DNA of 64,000 nt from Botryllus schlosseri (taxonomy: Eukaryota): the NCBI GenBank assembly GCA_051294905.1, contig CM119372.1:12340001-12404000 (forward strand), written 5' to 3'. Each line of letters starts with the position of its first letter. Position 1 is the stretch's first letter. The position numbers and the translations under genes are program-made. This document shows, piece by piece, positions 8,425 to 62,448 of this stretch. The notes under the pieces were generated by a model. The model was not told the origin of the DNA. It saw only the letters and a list, made by a program, of their open reading frames with translations, and made no database searches.

Positions 8425-8930
8425 CTCTAGAACAAGGCTATTTCACCAAACTGCGCACTGCTCGGAAGTCAGCGACCAAGACAATAAGCTTGGTAGCATC
8501 CCAAACACATATTAATGTCTTAACAGAAAAACGTGGATAGGGGTTGAGTGTTTAAAATGTATCATGCTGTTTAACATTGCTTCGAATTATGACGGCAAAT
8601 TAATATTACGATTTGTTATTAATTAACCGTCACTTTACTTTTTGATTACTTTATACATCAACATATCCACTGGGCCTCATTTATGAACAATGTAATTCAC
8701 TGCGTTCAATTTAGAAATAAAATGAATAGATGGGAGAATATAACAAATATTTTTGACTTGGTCCGCCAACGTATTTTCAGATTCTCATTTGGCCCGCGGA
8801 AAAAAATAATTACCCACCCCTGCTATTGGAGAACCAATACCTACCAACTCCTTCTCGCTCAGGATCGAATGAAGTCTTTAAATCTAGCATGTCGAGCGAT
8901 TCTCTCTATCTGACGAGAAATGAAACACAG

Positions 8931-9433
8931 TGTAGCCGCAACCCGCAGATCGCGCCACAGGGTGGATTGAAATATCTGGCTGCTTATATTCCCTTTCGGC
9001 ACAGAGAAAAAGACTCGCTTTGTTGGTGCGTGTTTTCTATTAAAAATGAAATACAATAAGCATTGGCAAGTATGTACTAAGCTATCAAATACAAAGCATC
9101 TTACTTGACAATGTGTCTTCCGGGTTTTTTAGTTTATTTTATTTATAGATTTACTTTGACTGTAACAAGATATCAAAACAGTGAGACAATGAATCAATTA
9201 ACCTAACTAGCCCTATTCTAGCAATGCAATAAACCTAACTATTCCTATTCTATTAACTGAACTAATGCCAAAACGATCCTACCACTAACGCACGTGTACT
9301 AAACGGTGAATTACACCACGATACGTCAGACCTAGTTACCGCTGTGAGGTAACAATGACACTGAGTCCACTTCCTTGTTCGGCGGGAGTGTGAAGGAGCC
9401 ACAGCGACACCTTAGGGCCGTACGGCGGCTACA
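8931..9433 (-). repeat. 3' LTR of the BEL/Pao element
   Basis: 503-bp direct repeat of 13234-13736; no mismatch found by eye. Confidence 0.96.
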
Positions 9434-9681
9434 TCCTGGCCCCTTGGAAATTCAAAATTTGTTCCGAATTTGGAGATTTCCACACACACACTCTCACGCA
9501 GTCAGCAGGTGCTACCAAACGAAATGGTAATTATTTAACGAAATCAAAACTCAAGTTATTCTCTCTTATGTAAGAGGGCAAGCTTAGAAATACAACGGGT
9601 GTATTTTGAAAGTTTAGTCCACAGTGGCTGGTCTAGGAGCAACTGTGGATTGTTTGACAAAAAGACAAATTTAGAAGTGTA

Positions 9682-12600
9682 TCAGCAGAAAGGCCTCTCA
9701 AGGCGATGTCTGCAGGGATTCAACTTGGACGGTACATTCCACCATCGATACAGGTTGGACCCAGCTTTGATTTGGTTGAAAACGAATGTCTTGAAGGCGT
9801 TGCAGAAATTTGCAAGATACCACATTGCAGTTATACACATCCACCAGAGAAAGGAGAGGCTGATTGTAAATATCGGTTCTTTTGGAAAGTATTTGTCATT
9901 GTTGACCGTACAGTTTGAGTTCATTTCAGAGTAAGGGAAATCTTTCTTCCGTTGGAGACGAAACAGATCCTTGTCTTCTTCACAAGCCTTCGCTTGGTGA
10001 ATCACAGCTCGAACATCTCCTTGGATGCCGACGATATGTTTGTGGACACTGGATGAGACTTCAACCAGATCCTTTGTCAAATCTGGCCCCTGTAACAGAC
10101 CATCATTAAGTGAGATGTCATTATACAGTTCCATTGATTTTTCTGCAGATTCAAGAGACAGTTTATCATTCTGTGACAGTTCTTGTTTCTCGTTCTTCTT
10201 CGAGTCGACAAAATCCCGACACAGCTGATATAAGGATTTCGGCAAATTCGTTGCAGGCTTTGAGAAAAATACCTTTTTTGTTCCGACTTCCGCTTTGGCC
10301 GGGCAGTTTATCATCCAGCCTGCAAACGTTCTTGTTGCATAATAGTCATTTGGACCATGAATTACCTCCAGGGGCTTGTGAAGCCTTCTGTTTTCTTTTC
10401 CAATTAATAGTCCAACTTCGGATGCTAGTTTTGGGATACACAGGTCTTGGAATTCCGGAAATTGGTTGACATCTTCTTGTCTGGGAATGTCGACGTCCTC
10501 GACACCAATCCAGTCAGTTGATACTAATGGTGTAAGCGGAGCATATTCTGTGCCATAGAAGTCGGACAACTCAAGATTATCGAATATGTTACCTTTGTAA
10601 CCGGATAATCCTGCCAGAGTGCGAAGATCAAATTCTGTTTGACCACCTTGGAGGCAAAGTTCCTTTGCAAGATTTTCACTGATGAATGAAAGGTGACTTC
10701 CATTGTCGAAGAAAGCGTGTGTAGCAATATAGCAGTTTGTTCCTCGAATTCTGACGCGGACGGGTGCCACGTTAAGTAACACATTTTCTTCAGGTAATTT
10801 GGCGAATGCATTGAATTTCACAGGTCCTTGAGCCTTTGGAGCGTTTTCTTGGGCGACAGTTGAAGCCGCAGAATTTTGGACAACGGGTTCGCTCGCATTG
10901 TCAGAAGAGACTGGATTCACATGCAGGAGTGTTGTATGTTTTCCATCACAATGTTGATACTTGCATGGCTTTTCTCTAGTACAGTTGTCGGACCAGTGTC
11001 CGGGTTGCAAGCACGAGAAGCATAGCTTGTTATTTTTCACAAAATCTCTTCTGCCAGTAACGTCCATATCACGGAACACCTGGCACTGATTGAGGAAGTG
11101 TTTTTTCTTACATTTTATGCACGATGACCCACAGTCATCCTTGGTGCCTTTATTACCGGCACAAACAGAAGTTGCAAAGTTTGATTTTGTTTGCCTTACA
11201 ACAACTGGCTTATTGTTTGTACTTTGTTCACGGGGAGGGACATTTGACGCTTCACGTACCTTTTTACGCACGTAAGCCGACAGGTCACTCATTTTCACTT
11301 CGCACTGCAGTTCATGGAGGATATGGTCCATGACGCTAAGCCAGCCTGACCTCCATTGTGAGGGCATTCTGAGTGCGATTTTATCGATCGTCTCCAGCGA
11401 GACGGATTGGTAGTTAATACCTTTGAGAGTATTTACACAGGATATAAGATCGGCGGAAAGAATCGCCAAGCCATCTTGATCATGCAACTTTACTTGAGGA
11501 CCAGAGGATATTAAGTTTAAACAAGAAGGTCCGATTCTGAACTTTTGGCCATACATCTCTTGTAGCAGGTTCAGTGCTTTTCGGTAGCAGTCGTTTGCAT
11601 CAAGGTGTAAGCAGCTCTTGACGAGAGTATTTGCTGGTCCCTTGGTGTAACGCATCAAGTACACCAGTTTTTGTTTCTGATTTATAATTTTGTTTCCAAT
11701 TGTTATTTCAAAAATGTCCATGAAACTATTGAAGTCACTTGGATTACCAGAAAAGATTGGGGGTTCTAAGGGTGGCAAAAGGTTTGGTTGAGTTACTGGC
11801 GGGGCTATAGAATGCACAACGTTGGCAGACGAACATGAGTCATTGTTTGTGGAAGCCAAAATGGAACTAGGCACTACTTCTGGGCCAGATGGGCTTCTCA
11901 AATCTAAAATTGGTTTGTGATTCAAGGTAATGAATGGAGAAGTTGTAGCCACCATATTTGTTAGATTTGACATAATGGGATTATTTGACGAGACCGAATT
12001 AGGAGGTTGGCAATAGACGTTGGTGCCAGATAACACAGTATTAGGACTACTTACACTCGTACTGCTGACGTTCCTTGCACTCACACTATTGGCATTCATA
12101 GCACCCACACTGCGAATTGGTAAGGAACAATATGAACTTCCAAGGGGTGAGAAAATAGCCGACGTACCTGTTTCTGAGAGATTTGGAGTCATCGAAGGTT
12201 CTCGAAGTTGCTGCGGTTCTGGTTTTACCACTGGTGCCAGTGGAACGTTGGCGTTCTCGGATACTGTGACGGAGTTCGAGCTTGATATTGGTTGATGCAC
12301 AATTTGGGTGCTTTTAGAGCCGTTATATAGTCCCCGTTCAATCATAATTTCCTCGAATTGAGCTTCTGATTGTAGCTTTTCTCGCTCAGTTCTATCGTCA
12401 ATTTCTTGTAGGTTATTCTTCAGTCTTTGATTCAAAGACCTTCTGCCTTCGAGAGCCTTCAATCTATGCATTTCGAGTTTTCGTCGTAAACCCATTTGAC
12501 GCTTCCGATCTTCCTCTTCTCTACGTCTTAATTCCAATTGACGACTCTTTTCTTCTTCTTGACGTCTCATTTCTTCTTCTTGACGCCTCTTTTCTTCTTC

Positions 12601-13170
12601 CTCTTGACGTCTCTTTTCTTCTTCTTCTTGAAGTCGTAATTCCTGGAAAATCTGTTCCTCTTCAGATCTTATCTGATCTTCGAAGGCGTCATTTTCTTGT
12701 TGAAAGCGATGCTGGACGTGTTTTTTGTCCATTTCAGCCTTTTTGTCGCGGTGAACATCCCTCGAGTGTTGTAAACTGAGTATTTGAGAGTTACTCATAT
12801 AGCTTGATCCTGTTGCAGTGCTCGAGACAGACGATCGTGATTTCAGTGATTTGGCAAATACCGGTAGGGTTTTTGGCTTGTTTGAGCAGTGGCTCGATGA
12901 CAAGGACGGCCTACCTTTGGTCGGCAGGCTCCTTAGAGTCATAGAATGTGACCTCAGTAACTTTGATTTGTGAATAGTCGACACAGCTGACTTTGACTTT
13001 TTGTTTTCTCTTTGTTTGTCAGTGTTCGACATTCTTTGGATTTGTTCGAGGCCAAAAGAACCACTGCTTGTGCCGGCCTGGGCATTGTTTGATTTATCAT
13101 TACGTACCGGTACCGTAGTTTGCTCTTCAGTCTCCACTAGCAGCAAGTTTGAATTAGCTTCTTCAGCCAT
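9682..13170 (-). CDS. BEL/Pao Gag-aspartic protease polyprotein with truncated Pol relic tail (1162 aa)
   Basis: Basic/Ser-rich N-terminus, E/R coiled coil, Pao capsid-like motif PLEPPIFSGNPSDFNSFMDIFE (DUF1759-like), triple Cys-His knuckles (CIKCKKKHFLNQC; CFSCLQPGHWSDNC; CKYQHCDGKHTTLLH), protease motif AFFDNGSHLSFIS, then short RT/RNase H remnants. Confidence 0.93.
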   Translation of the reverse strand: MAEEANSNLLLVETEEQTTVPVRNDKSNNAQAGTSSGSFGLEQIQRMSNTDKQRENKKSKSAVSTIHKSKLLRSHSMTLRSLPTKGRPSLSSSHCSNKPKTLPVFAKSLKSRSSVSSTATGSSYMSNSQILSLQHSRDVHRDKKAEMDKKHVQHRFQQENDAFEDQIRSEEEQIFQELRLQEEEEKRRQEEEEKRRQEEEMRRQEEEKSRQLELRRREEEDRKRQMGLRRKLEMHRLKALEGRRSLNQRLKNNLQEIDDRTEREKLQSEAQFEEIMIERGLYNGSKSTQIVHQPISSSNSVTVSENANVPLAPVVKPEPQQLREPSMTPNLSETGTSAIFSPLGSSYCSLPIRSVGAMNANSVSARNVSSTSVSSPNTVLSGTNVYCQPPNSVSSNNPIMSNLTNMVATTSPFITLNHKPILDLRSPSGPEVVPSSILASTNNDSCSSANVVHSIAPPVTQPNLLPPLEPPIFSGNPSDFNSFMDIFEITIGNKIINQKQKLVYLMRYTKGPANTLVKSCLHLDANDCYRKALNLLQEMYGQKFRIGPSCLNLISSGPQVKLHDQDGLAILSADLISCVNTLKGINYQSVSLETIDKIALRMPSQWRSGWLSVMDHILHELQCEVKMSDLSAYVRKKVREASNVPPREQSTNNKPVVVRQTKSNFATSVCAGNKGTKDDCGSSCIKCKKKHFLNQCQVFRDMDVTGRRDFVKNNKLCFSCLQPGHWSDNCTREKPCKYQHCDGKHTTLLHVNPVSSDNASEPVVQNSAASTVAQENAPKAQGPVKFNAFAKLPEENVLLNVAPVRVRIRGTNCYIATHAFFDNGSHLSFISENLAKELCLQGGQTEFDLRTLAGLSGYKGNIFDNLELSDFYGTEYAPLTPLVSTDWIGVEDVDIPRQEDVNQFPEFQDLCIPKLASEVGLLIGKENRRLHKPLEVIHGPNDYYATRTFAGWMINCPAKAEVGTKKVFFSKPATNLPKSLYQLCRDFVDSKKNEKQELSQNDKLSLESAEKSMELYNDISLNDGLLQGPDLTKDLVEVSSSVHKHIVGIQGDVRAVIHQAKACEEDKDLFRLQRKKDFPYSEMNSNCTVNNDKYFPKEPIFTISLSFLWWMCITAMWYLANFCNAFKTFVFNQIKAGSNLYRWWNVPSKLNPCRHRLERPFC

Positions 13171-13233
13171 TTTGGTTTTCTTTGTTGATGAAGGTGTTCC
13201 AACGAACAGATTTGAATATTGTCAAAAAACTAA

Positions 13234-13736
13234 TGTAGCCGCAACCCGCAGATCGCGCCACAGGGTGGATTGAAATATCTGGCTGCTTATATTCCCTTTC
13301 GGCACAGAGAAAAAGACTCGCTTTGTTGGTGCGTGTTTTCTATTAAAAATGAAATACAATAAGCATTGGCAAGTATGTACTAAGCTATCAAATACAAAGC
13401 ATCTTACTTGACAATGTGTCTTCCGGGTTTTTTAGTTTATTTTATTTATAGATTTACTTTGACTGTAACAAGATATCAAAACAGTGAGACAATGAATCAA
13501 TTAACCTAACTAGCCCTATTCTAGCAATGCAATAAACCTAACTATTCCTATTCTATTAACTGAACTAATGCCAAAACGATCCTACCACTAACGCACGTGT
13601 ACTAAACGGTGAATTACACCACGATACGTCAGACCTAGTTACCGCTGTGAGGTAACAATGACACTGAGTCCACTTCCTTGTTCGGCGGGAGTGTGAAGGA
13701 GCCACAGCGACACCTTAGGGCCGTACGGCGGCTACA
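13234..13736 (-). repeat. 5' LTR of the BEL/Pao element
   Basis: 503-bp direct repeat of 8931-9433; ORF ATG lies 63 nt downstream on the minus strand. Confidence 0.96.
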
Positions 13737-16700
13737 CACAGTATGAAACGTCATTACGGCCACGAACAAACACTTAAGCAAGACTATATGCTGCAATATG
13801 TTTCGTTACAGTTTTGGTAGGCTACATTTCCCCATGCTATTTATTGTGGAGCAATGAATACCAATTTGACCCTCCAAACAAGCTTGTTCTTCTAGTTAAA
13901 TTTAAATCCACCAAATGGTAATATAATTGTATCAATGTATCAAGCAATTTCCTTTTTGTTACTCAATCAACCGATAGCTCTATATACGTAGACCATGGAT
14001 ACGGATACTAACTCGTGACTATTTTTTTAATTAACGAAATGTAGCGATATCATTTTCGCGTTGATTTCCCTGAATGATCGACTTGGTAGAAATCTGAGTT
14101 GTGTGCATAGTATACCAGACCCGCCACATACCGACTGCCACATTTACAGAAATATAAATTTAGACGTCCCTCAGCATTCGATAACACACTTCGGATCTTG
14201 TGGAAAAACGTAACTCATTGAAACGGAGAATATTTGGATATTGTATGGGTAGTATCATTTCGACTTTCCAATTTCGATAGCGAAGTGATACGTTCCACCG
14301 TTGCAACACCAATGGTTTATAAGTTTGAGTCTGACGCAGATCGACTCCTGATTCCCTAAGTATTGGAAGTTTATGTAGGCTAAGGCTCCTACTCACCATC
14401 CGATACGCGTTAGCGGTTTCTTACGAAAGCCTAGAACGAAAGTTGGTCTTGCTATGACTCAACTGCTCGGAATTCATACATAAAATTAATTTTATCCGCA
14501 TGGTGTAAAACGACCAAGTTGTCGGCACCATGAATATTGAACAACAAAAATACCACGAATATACTTCTAAACATTAAATAATATTTTTTCGACCATCCTC
14601 GGGTTACCATTACATAGCAAAGTTAATTAATCGATTTATTGTAATAATTATGTAAAATATCTGCGTAGTATATGTACTTTACTACATATAGCGTGCAGTA
14701 TGAATTATCGCTTATGCTGTTCCCGCTGGCGTGACCCGAGTCAATAATAAGACAGTGATTAGGTCAAGACAACGACATTTCGCATTCCTGGATACAGTCC
14801 AACTCCCAATTCTTAAATCCTAATTAGCATGTCTGATTAGGTGCTGTGAACATAAATAGATTCGTTCCATACAAGGAGCGAGAAAGTTGACAGCAGCAAA
14901 TTAATGACCGGCGACAACTCAATGTGACGTAGCCTAGTGACGGATGGTTTACTATACCTTATGAATGTAGTCGTCATGATATTCGGCGTAATGCAGTAAC
15001 GAACTGCGCTGTCGTCCAAAAGCATGTATATGTAGCAGAATCGTGCCGTATTTACAAAGCCTTGCCGGTCTTGCGAATGCTGGGGGCTAGATTCGCCACG
15101 TAGTCGTCAACAGCTCAACATCGCCTCATGCGACTACCTAAATTAGCATAGCAACTGTAAGTGGCAGGTCACAGAGCTCGACTCAGCAGTATGAAGCCTT
15201 GCGTGATACTACGACTAGTCAAGTTTATAGTAATATGGGGGCATTCGAATAAATATATATATGAGAGAAATGGAGATCCTCTCACTAAAAACGTTTTATA
15301 GGCTTGCTGTTTTAGACTACATTGTCAGCGACTCCCCGTGTCTTTTTGGAGGAAACAAATTTCATATTAACTTTTCAAATAACAGTTATAATGACCATGA
15401 CAGAATTTGCCACGCCCGTGTATTGGTAGGCGGTAACGGGTCACCGACCTTAAAATGTTCAAATATGGAAATCTGTTAATTAATGCATATCTATTCCGTA
15501 TAAGATTACTAACAAATTAATTGTACCGAGGTAAATGACAGCTCGCCATATCGCTGTCACGGAAGCCGCAATGAACTGCGGCAGGTCATGCGAACAAGCA
15601 ATCATGAGACTTATTATATTTGTAAATATCGAGCAACCGGCGCATTTGCCCATCATTGTTATTATTACTCGATTCTTCAGGCCGATTTTTAAGCCTAATA
15701 AATGTCAATTTAGTGTTAACTTAATGAGGCTACATTAACGTAAGATTATGCGAGCATACAATACACTTGCTTGCATGGTCATTGGTCACTATAAATCGAT
15801 TGAGTTTCGTGTCGATGAACGTTACCATTGCATCATCGAAAGTAGGATTGAAATGATTTCAAACGTCAAAATATTCGTGCCGTTTGCACGATTAATGATA
15901 AATCATTTTTAGTGAATTAGGACCAGAATCTATCAGGTATCAACTGTATATCCTAGTTGACTGAAACATTCTCTACCATAGTGCCGATTTCGGGCAACGG
16001 GCGTAAATGTGTTTATCTATCGACTGACAAAAGGCATTCAAATCTGCTGTGATATATGATACAACATTTGCGGTTTCACAAATTAACAATCAATCAAATA
16101 TGAAGGACAAATCGGAAACAAGCGATCGGGAATTCTTCTTTGAATTCATCAAACCAATTTATGTGGATTGTTTATAAGCGCTGTTCCACGTGATAATTAT
16201 TTGTAGTCTCCTGAGCATTTCCAGTTGTTTAAGAAGTTTCAGGAGGCGAGGGGCGCTCCTAGAAAATAGGTACCATGTCCATCAAATCGCTGATAAATGT
16301 AATTCCCATGATATCTGATTTAATTGGTCATGCAGGTCGAAAAGCATTGACATTCAGAATTCTTGATGAAGATGTTCATTTAGATATCAGAAATTGTAGA
16401 AATATTGCATGCATAGTTTCTCACTGGTAACACTCTTTAAAATAGCATATAGCAATAGACCCGTACGGGTGCTATATTTTTCAGTCCTTGCCATTCCTTG
16501 ATAAACACTGAAGGACTATTTCAAAGTTACATCATGTTATCATCACCCACGCCTATATGAGTGAGATGCATGTGACACCCGGAACGGGTGACTGGCATGA
16601 AAATTCGGTGTTCTGTCAAGTACAACCCCGGCGATGTCAATATACTGGATGACTCATATGTGTAGCAAATGTGTTGTGAATTCCGCAAAGAGCACTGGGC

Positions 16701-26900: not shown

Positions 26901-29900
26901 GGAATGAATGCTTTTTTCCCCATGATGAAAATATTTTCAAGTCCTATTGTAGTTAATGTGGCCACTGACTCTGTTAATTTACAGCTTGAGTTGCTAGACA
27001 TGCAGTCAGATATAAAGACATGACCATTTGTTTGTGCGTCTCACGAAAGTTTTTCTTCTAGTCTGCTACGCTTGAGCCACTACAATATCGTTTGATTATA
27101 TAACAAACCGGAGGTCACGAATTAACAACATACACTAAAGTAATTATAACAAGATACCGGAGGTTAGAATTATGAATTACGTGCCCCAGCTTTACAGGTA
27201 TAGGTAATTCTGTGGCGAGATAGCGCAGTAGTATAATCCACGGCTGCAACGCCATTGGGTTGCGGGTTCGAGTCCGACCGAGGTCGACTTCAGAAATCCT
27301 TTCTAAGTGTTGGAGGTTTATCTAGGCTCCTCCTCGCCGCCTCTTCCGCGTAAGCGGTGTCTTACAATAAGCCTAGAAGTGGGCCGTGCTACAAGTCGGC
27401 AGATACGGAATCAAAAATGAAGAAAATCGGCCTGGTGTAACTGACCGTTGTAGTCGACAAACACCAAGATTACCTCAAACAAACAAACGGTACAGGTGAA
27501 TCTGACCATCGGGGGCTGAGAGAGGATTAAAAATCAATAGTAATATAATGCAATTAGTGACGAAATTAAGTCTTCAACTTTCGATTACCAACCTATGGTG
27601 GACGAACTGCTGTTTTGGTCTTAATTCCAGCTACAGCCCATGTTAACATGATATATAGGCCCATGGCCATGGCCACGCCAATGTTAAGTAAAGTTGGCAC
27701 CCGTTTCAAGTAGAGTCATATGAGAATAAGATGAAGCGAACATAAAATTCTGCCTTCAACTTAATACAGATATTGTACTGCAAGCTGCCGTTACGAGAAA
27801 CGGCAAAAACGGCTCGGTTTTGATATATATATATCACCAGCTGTTGATTTTTACTGCTTCGTTGTGGAAATCGCAATGTTTTATTTGACGAGTACAAAAT
27901 TTCAAATCTTGATGTACGTACGTAGCCTACTTGATAGGCCTACTGCTCGCCAAGCAGCTACGGTTAAATTGCGTTTAACTGAGCATAAGCATAACCAAAC
28001 ATCAACCATAAGTTACTATTTTAAAGTAGGCAGAGCGGAGATAAATTATCCCGCTGCGAGGTAGTGGCGTGTGGAACGTGTTGATAACCTGATATATAGC
28101 ACGACAGGTGTTCTTACAATGACACTAATGTGCGACGTATGTACATGTGTTCAATTGTACATCGAATATCTATTTACTGTGGATACTTCTTACGCAATGA
28201 CGCGCAAAGCTAATAGGCTGCTTCTGACGTAATAATGAGCTGTGGCGTTTGAAAATCAGACGTGTGTGCTGTCACGAGCCTGGTATAACATCTTTTCCTT
28301 GTTCACGAATGTTCAGTTTATGTCACAGTCCTTCCAAAATAAAAAGTAATCGTTCTTTCACAGAGAAATCGATTAAATATGAGAAGTAGTCGATTACGAT
28401 TACGATTACTTCGGGATTTTTTCGAATGTAATCGATTGCGATTACGATTACTTGAAAATGCTGTAATCGTCGTAATCGATTACGATTACTAATCGCGATT
28501 ACCCCATGTCTGTGTCATATATGGAAAAAAATTGACTGTTCGACAAGTACCTATTGCAAAAAAGGTAGCAAAATTGTTGTATTGAAAAAAAAGGACACTA
28601 GACATTCAATCTGACTATAGGTCAGTAACGAAGCACGTCTACTTTTTCAGAGTGCTCAAGCTCAAGTAGTTATGTTTTAAGACTAACTGGCAACTAGGTT
28701 AAAGAGTCCCTGTATATTGGTTACTCACTCAAGTCCTTTTCACAACTTCATTTTCCTCTTCTACTTGTAATTGAGCAGAAATTATGACGCTAGTTCTACT
28801 TCTACTTTGAAAGCTAACGCTGGCTAACTTCACAGTAAAATAATGTCAACGAGTGCAGCCTTACCGAATCCAGCACGGTCTTCAAGTCTTGCCGCGTCAC
28901 GAATCCCTTTCTGCCTTTGTCAAACAGATTAAATCTTCTTTTGTACCTTTCCATGTCGACGGCGTTGAGATTTACGTTCGAGGCGTCCTCGGCAGACTCC
29001 CTGGCCTGAGAAATGTAATCAAAACACGACTGAAGCCACCCATACCGACAAGCAAGATGCAAAGAGGAGCTTTTCGAGCACTTGTTAGACAGATTACATC
29101 GGTGTGGTCTGCATGAAGCCTTCCATGCGCGCAAGTGAAATATTTTAGGTATATGTTTTCAAGGGTCCATCGAATTCGATTTTCCAGCATGAGATGATAG
29201 ATATGCACAGCCAGTACAAGATGTCACGAGGAAAAGGACAGAGCGATAACAAAAAACACATCAAAACATTCGAGAACAAGGGAATGAGCAACAAAATATA
29301 ACCAGATTCCTTTCCGGCAAGAGCCCATCAGGATTGATACACAATGCACATATCGCCGGAAAAACATCAGCAATTACTATCGCTTCTGAATTTAAGTTGA
29401 GGCAATAGCCACGAGTCAGATTCCAGACTAGACTCGATGTCTTATTTACCAAAAAATGGAAACATATCCGCACTCTGCGGTTGGAAACTGTAACTGGTTC
29501 TATTTCCAACGTAAATTTCATCAATGCCAACATGGTTAACACGGAGCTGCAAGAAGATTCAGCCGTGTGTTAAATTTCACCGTATTCCTAAAACACCAGC
29601 AAGGCGATGATGATTCAAGAATAGATATAGCATGAACGAAATGATAGATCGTACCAATACAACTCCAGCGAAAAGCCAAGTTAGAAGTAGAGACTGCTTC
29701 TCAAAGCCAAACGTGACTTGCTTGAGTATAATTATATTTGTTGACGTAGGTGATTGATGGGACCAAACCTGGTGATAATGTGGCTGAATACTGAATTGCA
29801 TGAATTTTACATCATTACACAATCGATATTGCACATATGAACCAGATTAAAACAGGGTCTTTCATATCTCAATCACAATAGTTCGACCGGGCCAAATGAT

Positions 29901-56468: not shown

Positions 56469-59415
56469 TCAACTTTCCTCTTTCTTCTTACTTTCCAGAA
56501 TACCAAAGAGTTCGTCAGCGTTTTCGCTGGTTTTCACGCGGATAAGCATCGCAACCACCTATAAAGTTAAGATTATTTTTTAGAAAACATACGTCGTCGA
56601 GCATTATCATATCGCTTACTTCATCTTTCTGCTTCTCATTGATGGGGGGATTCGGAATGCACATGATCATGATATTGTTCTTGCCCTGTCGTTGAACAGG
56701 CATGGAAGACGTCAAGAGAATGTTGAGTAGAATTTGGCTGATGGCCGTGTCGGCCCGGACTAAAATCTGCGTCTTCGAACCGGACGGCTTCAGATATAAC
56801 TGTCCGATTCCGCGGTCGGCAAATGACTCTCCTTTCTTGTAGTAAAGCTTACACCTGTTCGAAGTTCAAAATAGAATTGTTGACTGTCGAAAAACAAGTA
56901 TAACGATGTTAAAAGCGCTACCTTATGGAATAAAAGGCATCGTCTTCGGCAACCACATTTGATTCAGGTTTCGGTGGTACATACTCTTCGTTGTCACCGG
57001 TAGCGGACTGTAAAATTTTTGATAATAAACTCATTAAAGAGCTGCAATCCGCTAGAAAAAAGATTCCAGAATATATCACGGTGAAATTCCGACAATTATT
57101 CAGTTGGCTACTGAAAAAGTCACAACGTTGGAGGCATATTTCAAATTTCAGGGCCTGCAGAGTCCAGACTTTCGTCAGAACGTACACTTGGTACACATGT
57201 TCCACCGCATTACACGTTACACTGCATGGTCCGCGACGGTTCGCAAAAAAATGTGTGGATAATGAAAGATTTGGTACGACAATAAAATTTGAACAGATTT
57301 ACATCAGATCGAGTGAACATTCTGCTCCCGACGCAGCCACGCAATATCCGTGTGATTTCTTGTAAACACACTCTCACCTGCTGACCGGGAGCATCTTGAC
57401 TTTTGTTAGCGACCATCGATGAACTGAATGTAAACCCAGAAAATCCAGCAGGTTTGGATAAACCACCCGATCCAAAACCTGTGAAAGGCGAACCGCTAGT
57501 CCCAGGATTGGTTTGAAATCCTGCAAAACTTGGCGTGATAGCTTGCACTTTGGGCACCTCCTTAGGAGGGACTGGTGATTCTGACTTTTTGTCCCCTGAT
57601 TGTTCTTGCGAGCCAAACCCGGAAAGAGTAAATTTTCGATTCTCAGAATCGCTACGCTGCGACAGAGTCTGACTCGAATCCGGGGATGCAGATTCTTGAG
57701 AATCAGAAGTTGTTTTTCCAGACGCTTGTCTGAATTAAGAAAGGACAAATACTGGAAGAAAACTACCGACAAATAGGTACCGAAACAATTCACGCTCATT
57801 TAGGAAATATATATCTATAATAAAATGGACTTGAAAACTTACGAGCCTTCAGCATCTGAGTGTCCATATTTGTCATCGATTTCAGCTAAATACTTTTTGT
57901 AATCGTTGAAGATTGGGCTCAGGTCACATAGCGGGTTCTTTTCCACGTGGCTCTGAAAGTATTGAATCACTCGACAATTCATTGAAATCCAGAACACTTG
58001 CAAAACACCTTGACCATGGTAATAATATCAAGACGACTAATCAGGTACTATACAGTATCTATGAATTCACATTTTATTACTGCAAGATAGAAAACTATGA
58101 TGAAATGATAAGGTGCGGCTATAACCTTAATCTTGAAATAATAGGTAATCAAAACCATACCTTTATCCAGTTACTGACACTTTTGTTCAATGAGCTTAAA
58201 TGGTTGTTGTATTTCGTCGCATTCTGAGATATCTCCATTTCAGCCTCACTCGATTTTGCAAGAGCTAAATAGAAATAATTATAAATTCAAATTTCATCAT
58301 TTACTGTTAGTACAAGTACATGAATGAACATCGAACAATCACATATCCATAATATATATGTGTGCCTGGAAGACAAAACCGTTTGACTTTTATCAAGCAA
58401 ACAAAATATTAATAAATTTCCCAAGATTTTTAACCTTTGTATATTTATAATATACAGTGGCTACCATCTAACAGCTTTGTTTACTTTGGCAAGACATATG
58501 CTATATCCATAAAAAAAAATAGCATCATACCACCTCATGAAACAGCCTGGCATATGGCATGAACATTTGTTCGCATGAATTACAAGGTCACATGAGATAT
58601 ATATTATCATCTCTAAATTATCACCATTACTCAATGACTGCTGACACATGACATAGAAAGTTTGTACCCTTGCCTAATTCTTGTTAGTAATCAAATTTCT
58701 TCGGCCATCTGCAACCATTCAGTAACAAAAATAAAATTAATACCAGTTTCAGACAAAAAGATTTCCTAGGACCGCAGTCTTGCATCTTGGCCTACACATA
58801 TGGAAGAAGAAAAACATGCGAGACAAAAGTTCCACAGAGTTGAGTAGTCCTATCCTGAGTATCACACAAGAGTAGGTTTCGGGAAAATGACATCCGGGAT
58901 GTTAATGTTTTTTTCCAATGTTTATATATGTGTCTTATATAGAGTTCACTATAGTTCATACCAGTGTCTTCAGTCCTTATTGAGCCATCGGCACCAGCAT
59001 TCTTTGAATTGGAGTTTGCTTCTAGCGCTTTAGTTACCGAAATATTGAACGTTGTAGATTCACTGTTCATAGTGAAGCCTTTAAATGAGTTGGATGCTGC
59101 GTTGTTATCAAATCCAACATTCGGTTTCAGCCCCGCAAAACCGGAAAATGTGGACATTCCACTCTGGTTGGATTAACAGGACGGAAACAAGTGTTCAATT
59201 CAAGTTAGCACGCCGTATAATCGGCCCAATGCAGCGGCGCCTACCTTATTCTCCCCAGTTGGTGGCATACGTCTCCTCGCTTTACGAATCACGCGGTTTT
59301 TGAGTGCATCTACGTTAGCTCTCTTGAATTCTCCGGTTCCCGCATTTTCATCTGAATCCTCCTCCTTATCCCAGTTTTGATCGGTTATATACTTGTCAGC
59401 TACTCGCTTTGCCAT
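56469..59415 (-). CDS. NUP50: Nucleoporin 50 (8 coding exons, ~449 aa)
   Basis: Exons (minus): 59245-59415, 58962-59163, 58161-58264, 57843-57952, 57378-57729, 56922-57007, 56620-56854, 56469-56558; phases consistent. N-terminal MAKRVADKYITDQNWD...RVIRKARRR importin-alpha binding motif, FxGF repeats, NPLCDLSPIFNDY, C-terminal RanBP1-type domain. Confidence 0.95.
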
Positions 59416-59672
59416 CTTGCGTTCAAAGGCGAATACCCACTAAGAAAAACCAACAATCGTCAGTCGCACATGCATAGTAATGTTACTTAAAAATCGAAAG
59501 CACCTGCAAAAACTTTTCACGTTGAGCTCAGCTAGCAATCAGCTGCAGAGCCCTGCGTCATTACGCAACGCACGAAGGAAGCGATAACCACACCGGTTTT
59601 CATACTCGGATTGAAAGTGATTATCCGGTACCTGATTTTCCATTCATTGTGTATGATTTCCAAATTTCAATT

Positions 59673-59841
59673 CGATTCATTGATTCATTGATTCATCCAT
59701 TCAATGATTCATTCATTCATTCAGTCATTCATTCATTCATTCATTCATTCATTCATTCATGCATTCATTCATTCATTCATTCATTCATTCATTCATTCAT
59801 TCATTCATTCATTCATTCATTCATTCATTCATTCATTCATT
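59673..59841. repeat. (CATT)n microsatellite upstream of NUP50
   Basis: Long near-perfect ATTC tandem array, degenerate at the left end. Confidence 0.95.
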
Positions 59842-60339
59842 CCAGGGATATATAGAGCTTGATATACATACATACATATAGAATATGTGCAAAAATGCAA
59901 ATAATATTTTTAAAAAATGAAAAAAAAATGTACAAAAAGTCAATATCACAATAGCAATTTACGCTGTGGCATAGATCATATATTGTTCGATATAGTTGCA
60001 TATTCAAATATGCATGGCGAACACGATTGCGTTGAGGCTTGGATTTTTAGAGATTCGCACCTCTTATATTTTTGCGTCCCTCCTTCACGCATAGCGCGAA
60101 ATTTTTTTTCAATTGACCCATATGGCCTTTTAGTAGGCCATGGTTGACCTAGCTTCGCACCCCCCTTCAGATGCTTTCACGCCCCCAGTTTGAGAACCAC
60201 TGATCTAACAGATTGGAATGTCACGAAATAGGACCATTCCAACATACAAGAAAGTAATTAATAACTGCTGAGCCGGTAAATTTTATCACGTGATGGGTTG
60301 AAGGAGGGCTAAAAATGAATAGTGAATTGAGGATACCGC

Positions 60340-62112: not shown

Positions 62113-62448
62113 TGTTTGTTTGTTTGTTTTGTGGTATTCATGGTGTTTGTCGACTACCAGGCCGATATTCTTCATAATTTTCCGCAACTGCACCGTATAG
62201 CTAGCACGGCCCACCTCTAGGCATTTTGTAAGACACCGCTTACGCGGCTGAGGTGGCGAGGAGCCTAGGTGAACCTCCAACGCTTCGTAAGACACCGCTT
62301 ACGCGGATGAGGGGGCTAAGAGTAAGTAAAGGAGTAAGTAAACCTCCAACACCTAGGTATCGGAATTATGAAGTCGACCTCGGTCGGAATCGAACCCGCA
62401 CCCATTATTGTTGCAGCCGCGGATTATACCACTGCGCTATCTCGCCAC
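62113..62448 (-). mobile_element. tRNA-derived SINE, family A, with internally duplicated core
   Basis: Reverse complement begins GTGGCGAGATAGCGCAGTGG...GGTTCGATTCC and ends (AAAC)n; homologous to 27212-27488. Confidence 0.88.

Follow-up and report, generated by a model that had tools for sequence, protein, structure and literature searches.

A BEL/Pao element with a decayed pol region and a tail that may have been kept open against nonsense-mediated decay

On the minus strand of the 64-kb window, a term by which we mean the whole stretch of DNA that was analysed, positions 8931-13736 (-) are occupied by an LTR retrotransposon of the BEL/Pao group (4,806 bp), whose features are compiled in Table 1. 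The identity of its two LTRs together with the 5-bp target-site duplication indicates a recent insertion. The element combines TG...CA LTR ends and a short target duplication with a triple Cys-His box, an aspartic protease carrying the DxG and LIG motifs (DNG at residue 839, LIG downstream of it), and the order protease, reverse transcriptase (RT), RNase H, integrase; the last three of these features are named as hallmarks of BEL/Pao elements in the available text of PMC554778. The Pfam domain PF05380 is carried by 22 of the 23 protein matches, and the nearest named proteins, for instance XP_077974458.1 and XP_077970656.1, belong to an ascidian, Styela clava, with 42% identity. At an E value of 1e-4, no other Pao pieces were found in the window beyond the element itself. 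Eight nucleotides of the primer-binding-site position are perfectly complementary to 13408-13415 in the LTR of the element itself (-8.6 kcal/mol), a match that would fit self-priming but was equalled by 8.1% of shuffles. Within the Gag region, an imperfect tandem repeat of 21/24 nt (12511-12631) encodes a Glu/Arg-rich coiled stretch, and structured RNA windows lie at 12874-13053 and 12574-12753, too.

Table 1. Features of the BEL/Pao element, listed in its direction of transcription (positions are those of the window)
Feature	Position	Strand	Remarks
5' LTR	13234..13736	-	503 bp, TG...CA ends; 100% identical to 3' LTR
Primer-binding-site position	13215..13233	-	first letters not TGG
Single ORF (Gag, protease, Pol relics)	9682..13221	-	1179 codons between stops; first ATG 13170
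Gag DUF1759 domain	11389..11754	-	Pfam E 1.6e-8
Triple Cys-His box, three complete fingers	10921..11121	-	motif scan; residues 701, 734, 753
Aspartic protease retaining its DxG and LIG motifs	10300..10773	-	55% identical to P0002
Relic 1: linker and pre-RT stretch	10126..10299	-	followed by a gap of ~98 residues
Relic 2: RT start with first catalytic Asp, YVDD missing	9958..10125	-	56 decayed residues; followed by a gap of ~276 residues
~13 codons at second junction	9919..9957	-	not significantly placed, 32/60 and 4/60 shuffles scoring equally
Relic 3: latter half of RNase H without the WTDS motif	9715..9918	-	3-residue gap near 9774
RNase H relic continued in other frame	9669..9716	-	best of 127,912 positions
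Relic 4: last ~17 integrase residues	9618-9568	-	profile, position score
Open main-frame codons (41) after TGA	9556..9681	-	natural-position TAA 9558-9556
Polypurine-tract-like stretch adjoining 3' LTR	9434..9445	-	from sequence
3' LTR	8931..9433	-	503 bp; AATAAA at 9138
Target-site duplication CACAG, 5 bp	8926..8930	+	second copy 13737-13741

Elsewhere in the window, two inverted repeat copies that are ~90% alike and contain a tRNA-like B-box stretch lie at 27212-27391 and 62202-62448; we take them to be probably a SINE. An ATTC microsatellite of 43 copies occupies 59670-59842, and a Ser/Gly/Phe-rich frame of 174 codons at 57210-57734 (-) may, as we presume, be an exon from a gene that resembles those of FG-repeat nucleoporins.

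The part of the ORF that follows the protease had been described, in an earlier note made from the letters of the window, as Pol compressed into a colinear mosaic of micro-relics. All peptides quoted there lie at the positions given for them, in one minus-strand frame, and their canonical order was borne out by tblastn with 23 Pao relatives. With P0002, a Styela clava protein and the closest tested protein to the window in the protease, residues 1-388 align with 11379-10117, residues 484-539 with 10125-9958 (E 5e-9) and residues 832-899 with 9909-9715 (E 7e-10), each of them in the main frame, while residues 892-914 align with 9734-9669 in another frame. The pieces of RT (7e-13) and RNase H (3e-6) are recovered, too, by a profile built from 12 Pao proteins. 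The proposed likeness of the last stretch to an integrase end is modest yet above chance: profile positions 44-60 match 9618-9568 with an i-E of 0.031, a score equalled at only 4 of 127,948 six-frame positions in the window (p 0.006-0.008 in the allowed zone), and a 16-residue stretch of the C-terminus of P0071 is 75% identical to this relic. On these sequence comparisons, the Pol mosaic of four colinear relics is judged to be real. The Pfam models that had been suggested as a check (RVT, Peptidase_A17, rve, DUF5641) matched no piece of the tail, whereas full-length relatives match four such kinds of domain.

Measured against the closest full-length relatives, the gaps amount to 98, 276 and about 510 residues, so that ~885 Pol residues are gone in three blocks; these lengths are counted in residues against protein relatives, and that they are multiples of 3 is inferred from the maintained frame. 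The postulated loss of catalysis is confirmed by a motif scan, in which the element lacks YVDD, FSDAS, WTDS, DCFGP and SDNG, whereas full-length P0045 has them all. Since it has neither the YVDD of RT nor the DAS of RNase H nor the integrase triad, the element cannot be autonomous. The most hydrophobic stretch of its protein lies in the RNase H relic at 9817-9873 (-), with a value of 1.46 as compared to 0.04-0.78 in five intact relatives.

The ORF is closed by the TGA at 9684-9682, as stated in the earlier note, 42 codons short of its natural end at the TAA. This premature stop had been attributed to a short compensated frameshift, of which one half stood. The off-frame piece at 9716-9669 ranks at the top of its 127,912 positions (zone p 0.003), and the one-base break near 9715 is thus real. 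A second, compensating one-base change did not find support, as the RNase H terminal motif at 9660 reaches only a zone p of 0.6 and an i-E of 0.19; the return to the main frame could have come about through the last deletion itself. Since the stop comes after the break and before the main frame is regained, the compensated frameshift cannot be under selection today. The break is the sole one in the ORF tail, and it is found where the ORF ends on its 3' side.

In order to view the element in the light of its sister copies, four public sequencing runs (of 24 listed) were compared with positions 9400-11400; the sister data detailed below, which were chosen by support, comprise 40 of the 154 variants, 12 of the 19 gaps, 9 of the 34 loose ends and 16 of the 724 records. 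DNA run X2 yielded 702 contigs, with 236 at 99% identity or more, 252 at 95-99%, 182 at 90-95% and 32 under 90%. No bin of the 30 is left uncovered. Of the contigs, 214 fall below 95% likeness, and only 2 in 100 continue into sequence that does not resemble the window; contigs differing by 6-8% span the second junction. The element thus belongs to a multicopy family with the same deleted layout. Raw RNA reads matching it are few, with 14 of 12.9 million records in run X24 and 19 of 22.2 million in run X22.

Among the sister records listed, none reads through to 9556, a point on which the earlier note had proposed a check, and the early TGA is, as far as these records show, common to the family. 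In run X1, one contig extends over 10188-9400; it differs by 13 substitutions and 9 additional letters but has no one-base gap at either 9715 or 9659; the TGA is untouched by the 12 of its 13 substitutions that are listed. In run X2, a one-base difference at 9715 is seen at a depth of 35/530. Record 14 of run X2 is 92% alike over 10116-9959 and departs from the window past the first junction, which hints that less deleted relatives exist; this record, record 11 of the same run and a joint at 10126-10138 in run X1 depart from the window at or close to the junctions, which points to relatives whose deletions have different break points. A protein with the same fused layout was not found in the protein searches, which returned three distant short matches, and the protein of the window itself is absent from the protein cluster table. 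When the best 150 of 1,773 representatives were considered, P0070, a 62-residue protease piece that is 95% identical, was the sole close match. Screening of metagenome contigs for related loci gave 186 pattern matches and that of viral contigs gave one, with 0 confirmed in either case.

The sister variants allow protease and tail to be compared with regard to selection. Among the 40 of 154 variants listed, 13 fall into the protease (10300-10799), 12 being synonymous and one non-synonymous, whereas 14 fall into the tail (9559-10299), with 4 synonymous and 10 non-synonymous changes at a neutral synonymous share of ~0.24; the two ratios differ with a Fisher p of 0.0013, where the protease variants are pooled over contigs rather than tied one by one to pol-deleted copies. 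Set outside this test are 10 variants of the gag-protease linker (2:8, mostly one cluster in a single, possibly misaligned contig) and three past the last stop. The protease is under purifying selection, and the amino acids of the tail change neutrally. Wear of the relics over the long term is also apparent from the comparison with relatives: the RT and RNase H pieces of the window are 45% and 43% identical to P0002, whereas the intact P0056, in the same comparison, reaches 69% and 67% there and 49% in the protease, from which it follows that about a third of the relic residues have been replaced.

Nonetheless, the tail has stayed open. Between the first junction and the break, 136 codons pass without a stop, where 2.7 (2-3) would be expected neutrally at a distance of ~0.2. 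The chance of zero stops is 0.06 at this distance (range 0.04-0.2, the upper value applying at a divergence of 0.1), and inclusion of 1/9 for two in-frame junctions gives a joint neutral chance of 0.007 (roughly 0.004-0.02), an estimate that is post hoc in that the tail was chosen for being open and that rests on partial variant tables. The tail carries one-base gaps (12 of 19 listed) at a density of 4.0 per kb, with 3 in 745 nt, as compared to 4.5 per kb in gag-protease and 19 per kb in the UTR/LTR (3 in 155 nt), the tail having only weakly fewer than the UTR/LTR (p 0.07). None of the 14 listed tail variants creates a stop, where under one was expected. The selection on the tail that had been proposed earlier finds support with regard to the frame, which is stop-free over 136 codons and two junctions with gaps no denser than in gag-protease, and no support with regard to a structural role of the peptide, given the neutral ratio of 4:10; mRNA stability, the other role put forward in the note, is plausible. 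An open frame with neutral residues implies that it is the frame and not the peptide that looks selected.

An unselected tail would be another account: one master copy would have gathered in-frame deletions by chance without acquiring a stop, and the sisters would have inherited them, the openness being partly a matter of ascertainment. The neutrality of the tail residues and the early end of the ORF are compatible with this account, and at the low divergence of 0.1 the absence of stops is not improbable. However, the joint neutral probability is low even before small gaps are counted; in neutral DNA so decayed, several frame-breaking gaps are expected, whereas the ORF tail contains, besides the final break, only one small gap, of 3 residues. 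We consider chance an unlikely source of the open tail.

It is rather unlikely, too, that the tail is a historical linker. According to this scenario, RT and RNase H were lost first, an integrase useful in cis was kept in frame behind them, with the relic pieces evolving as an open linker free of constraint, and was deleted last, and the break near 9715 arose afterwards. The open-but-neutral state of the first two junctions is accounted for equally well in this way, and record 14 of run X2 attests to relatives that were deleted in a different way. Against it stands that an integrase-bearing intermediate was not seen, the best protein matches being full-length proteins or fragments, and that sisters up to ~10% apart share the short tail among the records listed; the lack of stop-creating variants in the tail counts here only weakly.

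A tail with a function of its own, either by providing a novel peptide that binds membranes or has a structural role or through read-through to 9556 aided by RNA structure behind the TGA, is improbable. The hydrophobic stretch in the RNase H relic is the highest 19-residue window of the whole protein, the main frame remains open past the stop, and RNA 9693-9574 has a predicted fold better than that of shuffles (z -3.3; z -2.6 for 9730-9540). An 8-bp stem is contained in 9574-9693 (-), with its 3' arm ending near the last deletion junction. However, the variant pattern is that of a neutral peptide, and membrane helices usually exceed a hydrophobicity of 1.46. Furthermore, z values under -2 are reached by 8 of 62 RNA windows of the element, this one included, while the tail as a whole folds like shuffles (z -0.05). 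Leaky stops typically have a C after the TGA, whereas a T is present here.

The explanation that we prefer, and to which we assign about an even chance of being right, is that of a BEL/Pao element with decayed pol which borrows its enzymes and the tail of which has been kept open against nonsense-mediated decay. As none of the active sites of RT, RNase H and integrase is left, these enzymes would be supplied in trans by a full-length relative, with the element contributing its own Gag and protease. In LTR elements, one RNA serves as both the message and the packaged genome. The single RNA of this element would likewise have had both roles, so that a copy in which a deletion or substitution had placed a stop early, followed by a trailer then up to 3.8 kb long, would have lost its RNA and would not have been propagated. 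The tail would constitute a translated spacer, probably removed by the element's own protease. With the shrinkage of the trailer, a break 126 nt ahead of the natural stop may have become tolerable, given a 3' UTR of about 540 instead of 420 nt. For comparison, a stop after the protease would leave ~3.8 kb in the presence of a complete pol and ~1,160 nt today, while 544 nt follow the actual stop and 418 nt would follow the natural one; a trailer of today's ~1,160 nt is possibly not long enough to have an effect. An early stop with a long 3' UTR behind it is known to make retroviral RNA a target of decay, according to the available text of PMC2925335. A constraint of this kind on the position of the stop predicts neutral residues, few stops, and tolerance near the 3' end only, which matches the pattern seen.

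As a more specific version of this explanation, Pol might have been shed stepwise with translation always ending near the 3' LTR, and the structured RNA behind the stop might now either shield it or permit read-through; we hold this version to be possible, on the doubtful side. If this version is true, pol-deleted BEL/Pao families would represent a natural record of nonsense-mediated decay shaping the evolution of retroelements. Should the open-but-neutral tail hold on full copies, it would offer a population-genetic test of RNA surveillance as a limit to retrotransposon shrinkage; should it fail there, the element would be an ordinary internally deleted one.

Among known systems, the autonomous BEL/Pao elements (Pao, BEL, Sinbad and those encoding the Styela clava proteins) resemble the element in their single ORF, the DUF1759 Gag, the Cys-His box, the protease and the domain order, and differ from it by possessing the three Pol blocks and the catalytic motifs that have been lost here. 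Regarding its way of life, the element is closer to TR-GAG elements, sugar-beet GAG/PROT families, wheat RLG_Quinta, Sabrina and pol-less Athila, which, as far as described in the available texts, keep Gag (with or without protease), have no working RT or integrase, and still multiply. It shares with TR-GAG elements an intact Gag and protease ORF without working RT or integrase, a family that multiplied after the loss, and purifying selection on the protease; in the strict sense, however, TR-GAG elements are plant elements of copia or gypsy descent, as are the other plant families that keep Gag or protease, whereas the present element is of BEL/Pao descent with animal relatives and resides in an animal that is probably an ascidian.

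For sugar beet, the accessible part of PMC13570524 reports 28 GAG/PROT families and 15 families that have partly decayed pieces of RT, RNase H or integrase, and scraps of pol as such are, thus, ordinary. Wheat Quinta keeps Gag together with a domain whose function is unknown (PMC11302176), and the ORFs of pol-less Athila are under purifying selection (PMC2410132); for both, RT and integrase supplied in trans in combination with an own Gag have been proposed, again as given in the available portions of these reports. Relic pieces joined in one open frame are not described for the plant families in these portions. Our literature search, which covered its sources in part, likewise returned no BEL/Pao element with an open relic tail, and supplementary family tables could hold similar cases.

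Rous sarcoma virus (RSV) provides the parallel with respect to RNA decay, in that a retroelement RNA with a stop far from its 3' end is a target of decay. There, the gag stop is shielded by a 155-nt element, according to what is available of PMC2925335, whereas for the present element protection through translation of the dead pol is proposed. Gag-keeping non-autonomous LTR elements have been described mainly in plants; the element reported here is a case from the BEL/Pao group and from an animal, and its protease shows signs of having been selected after the loss of pol.
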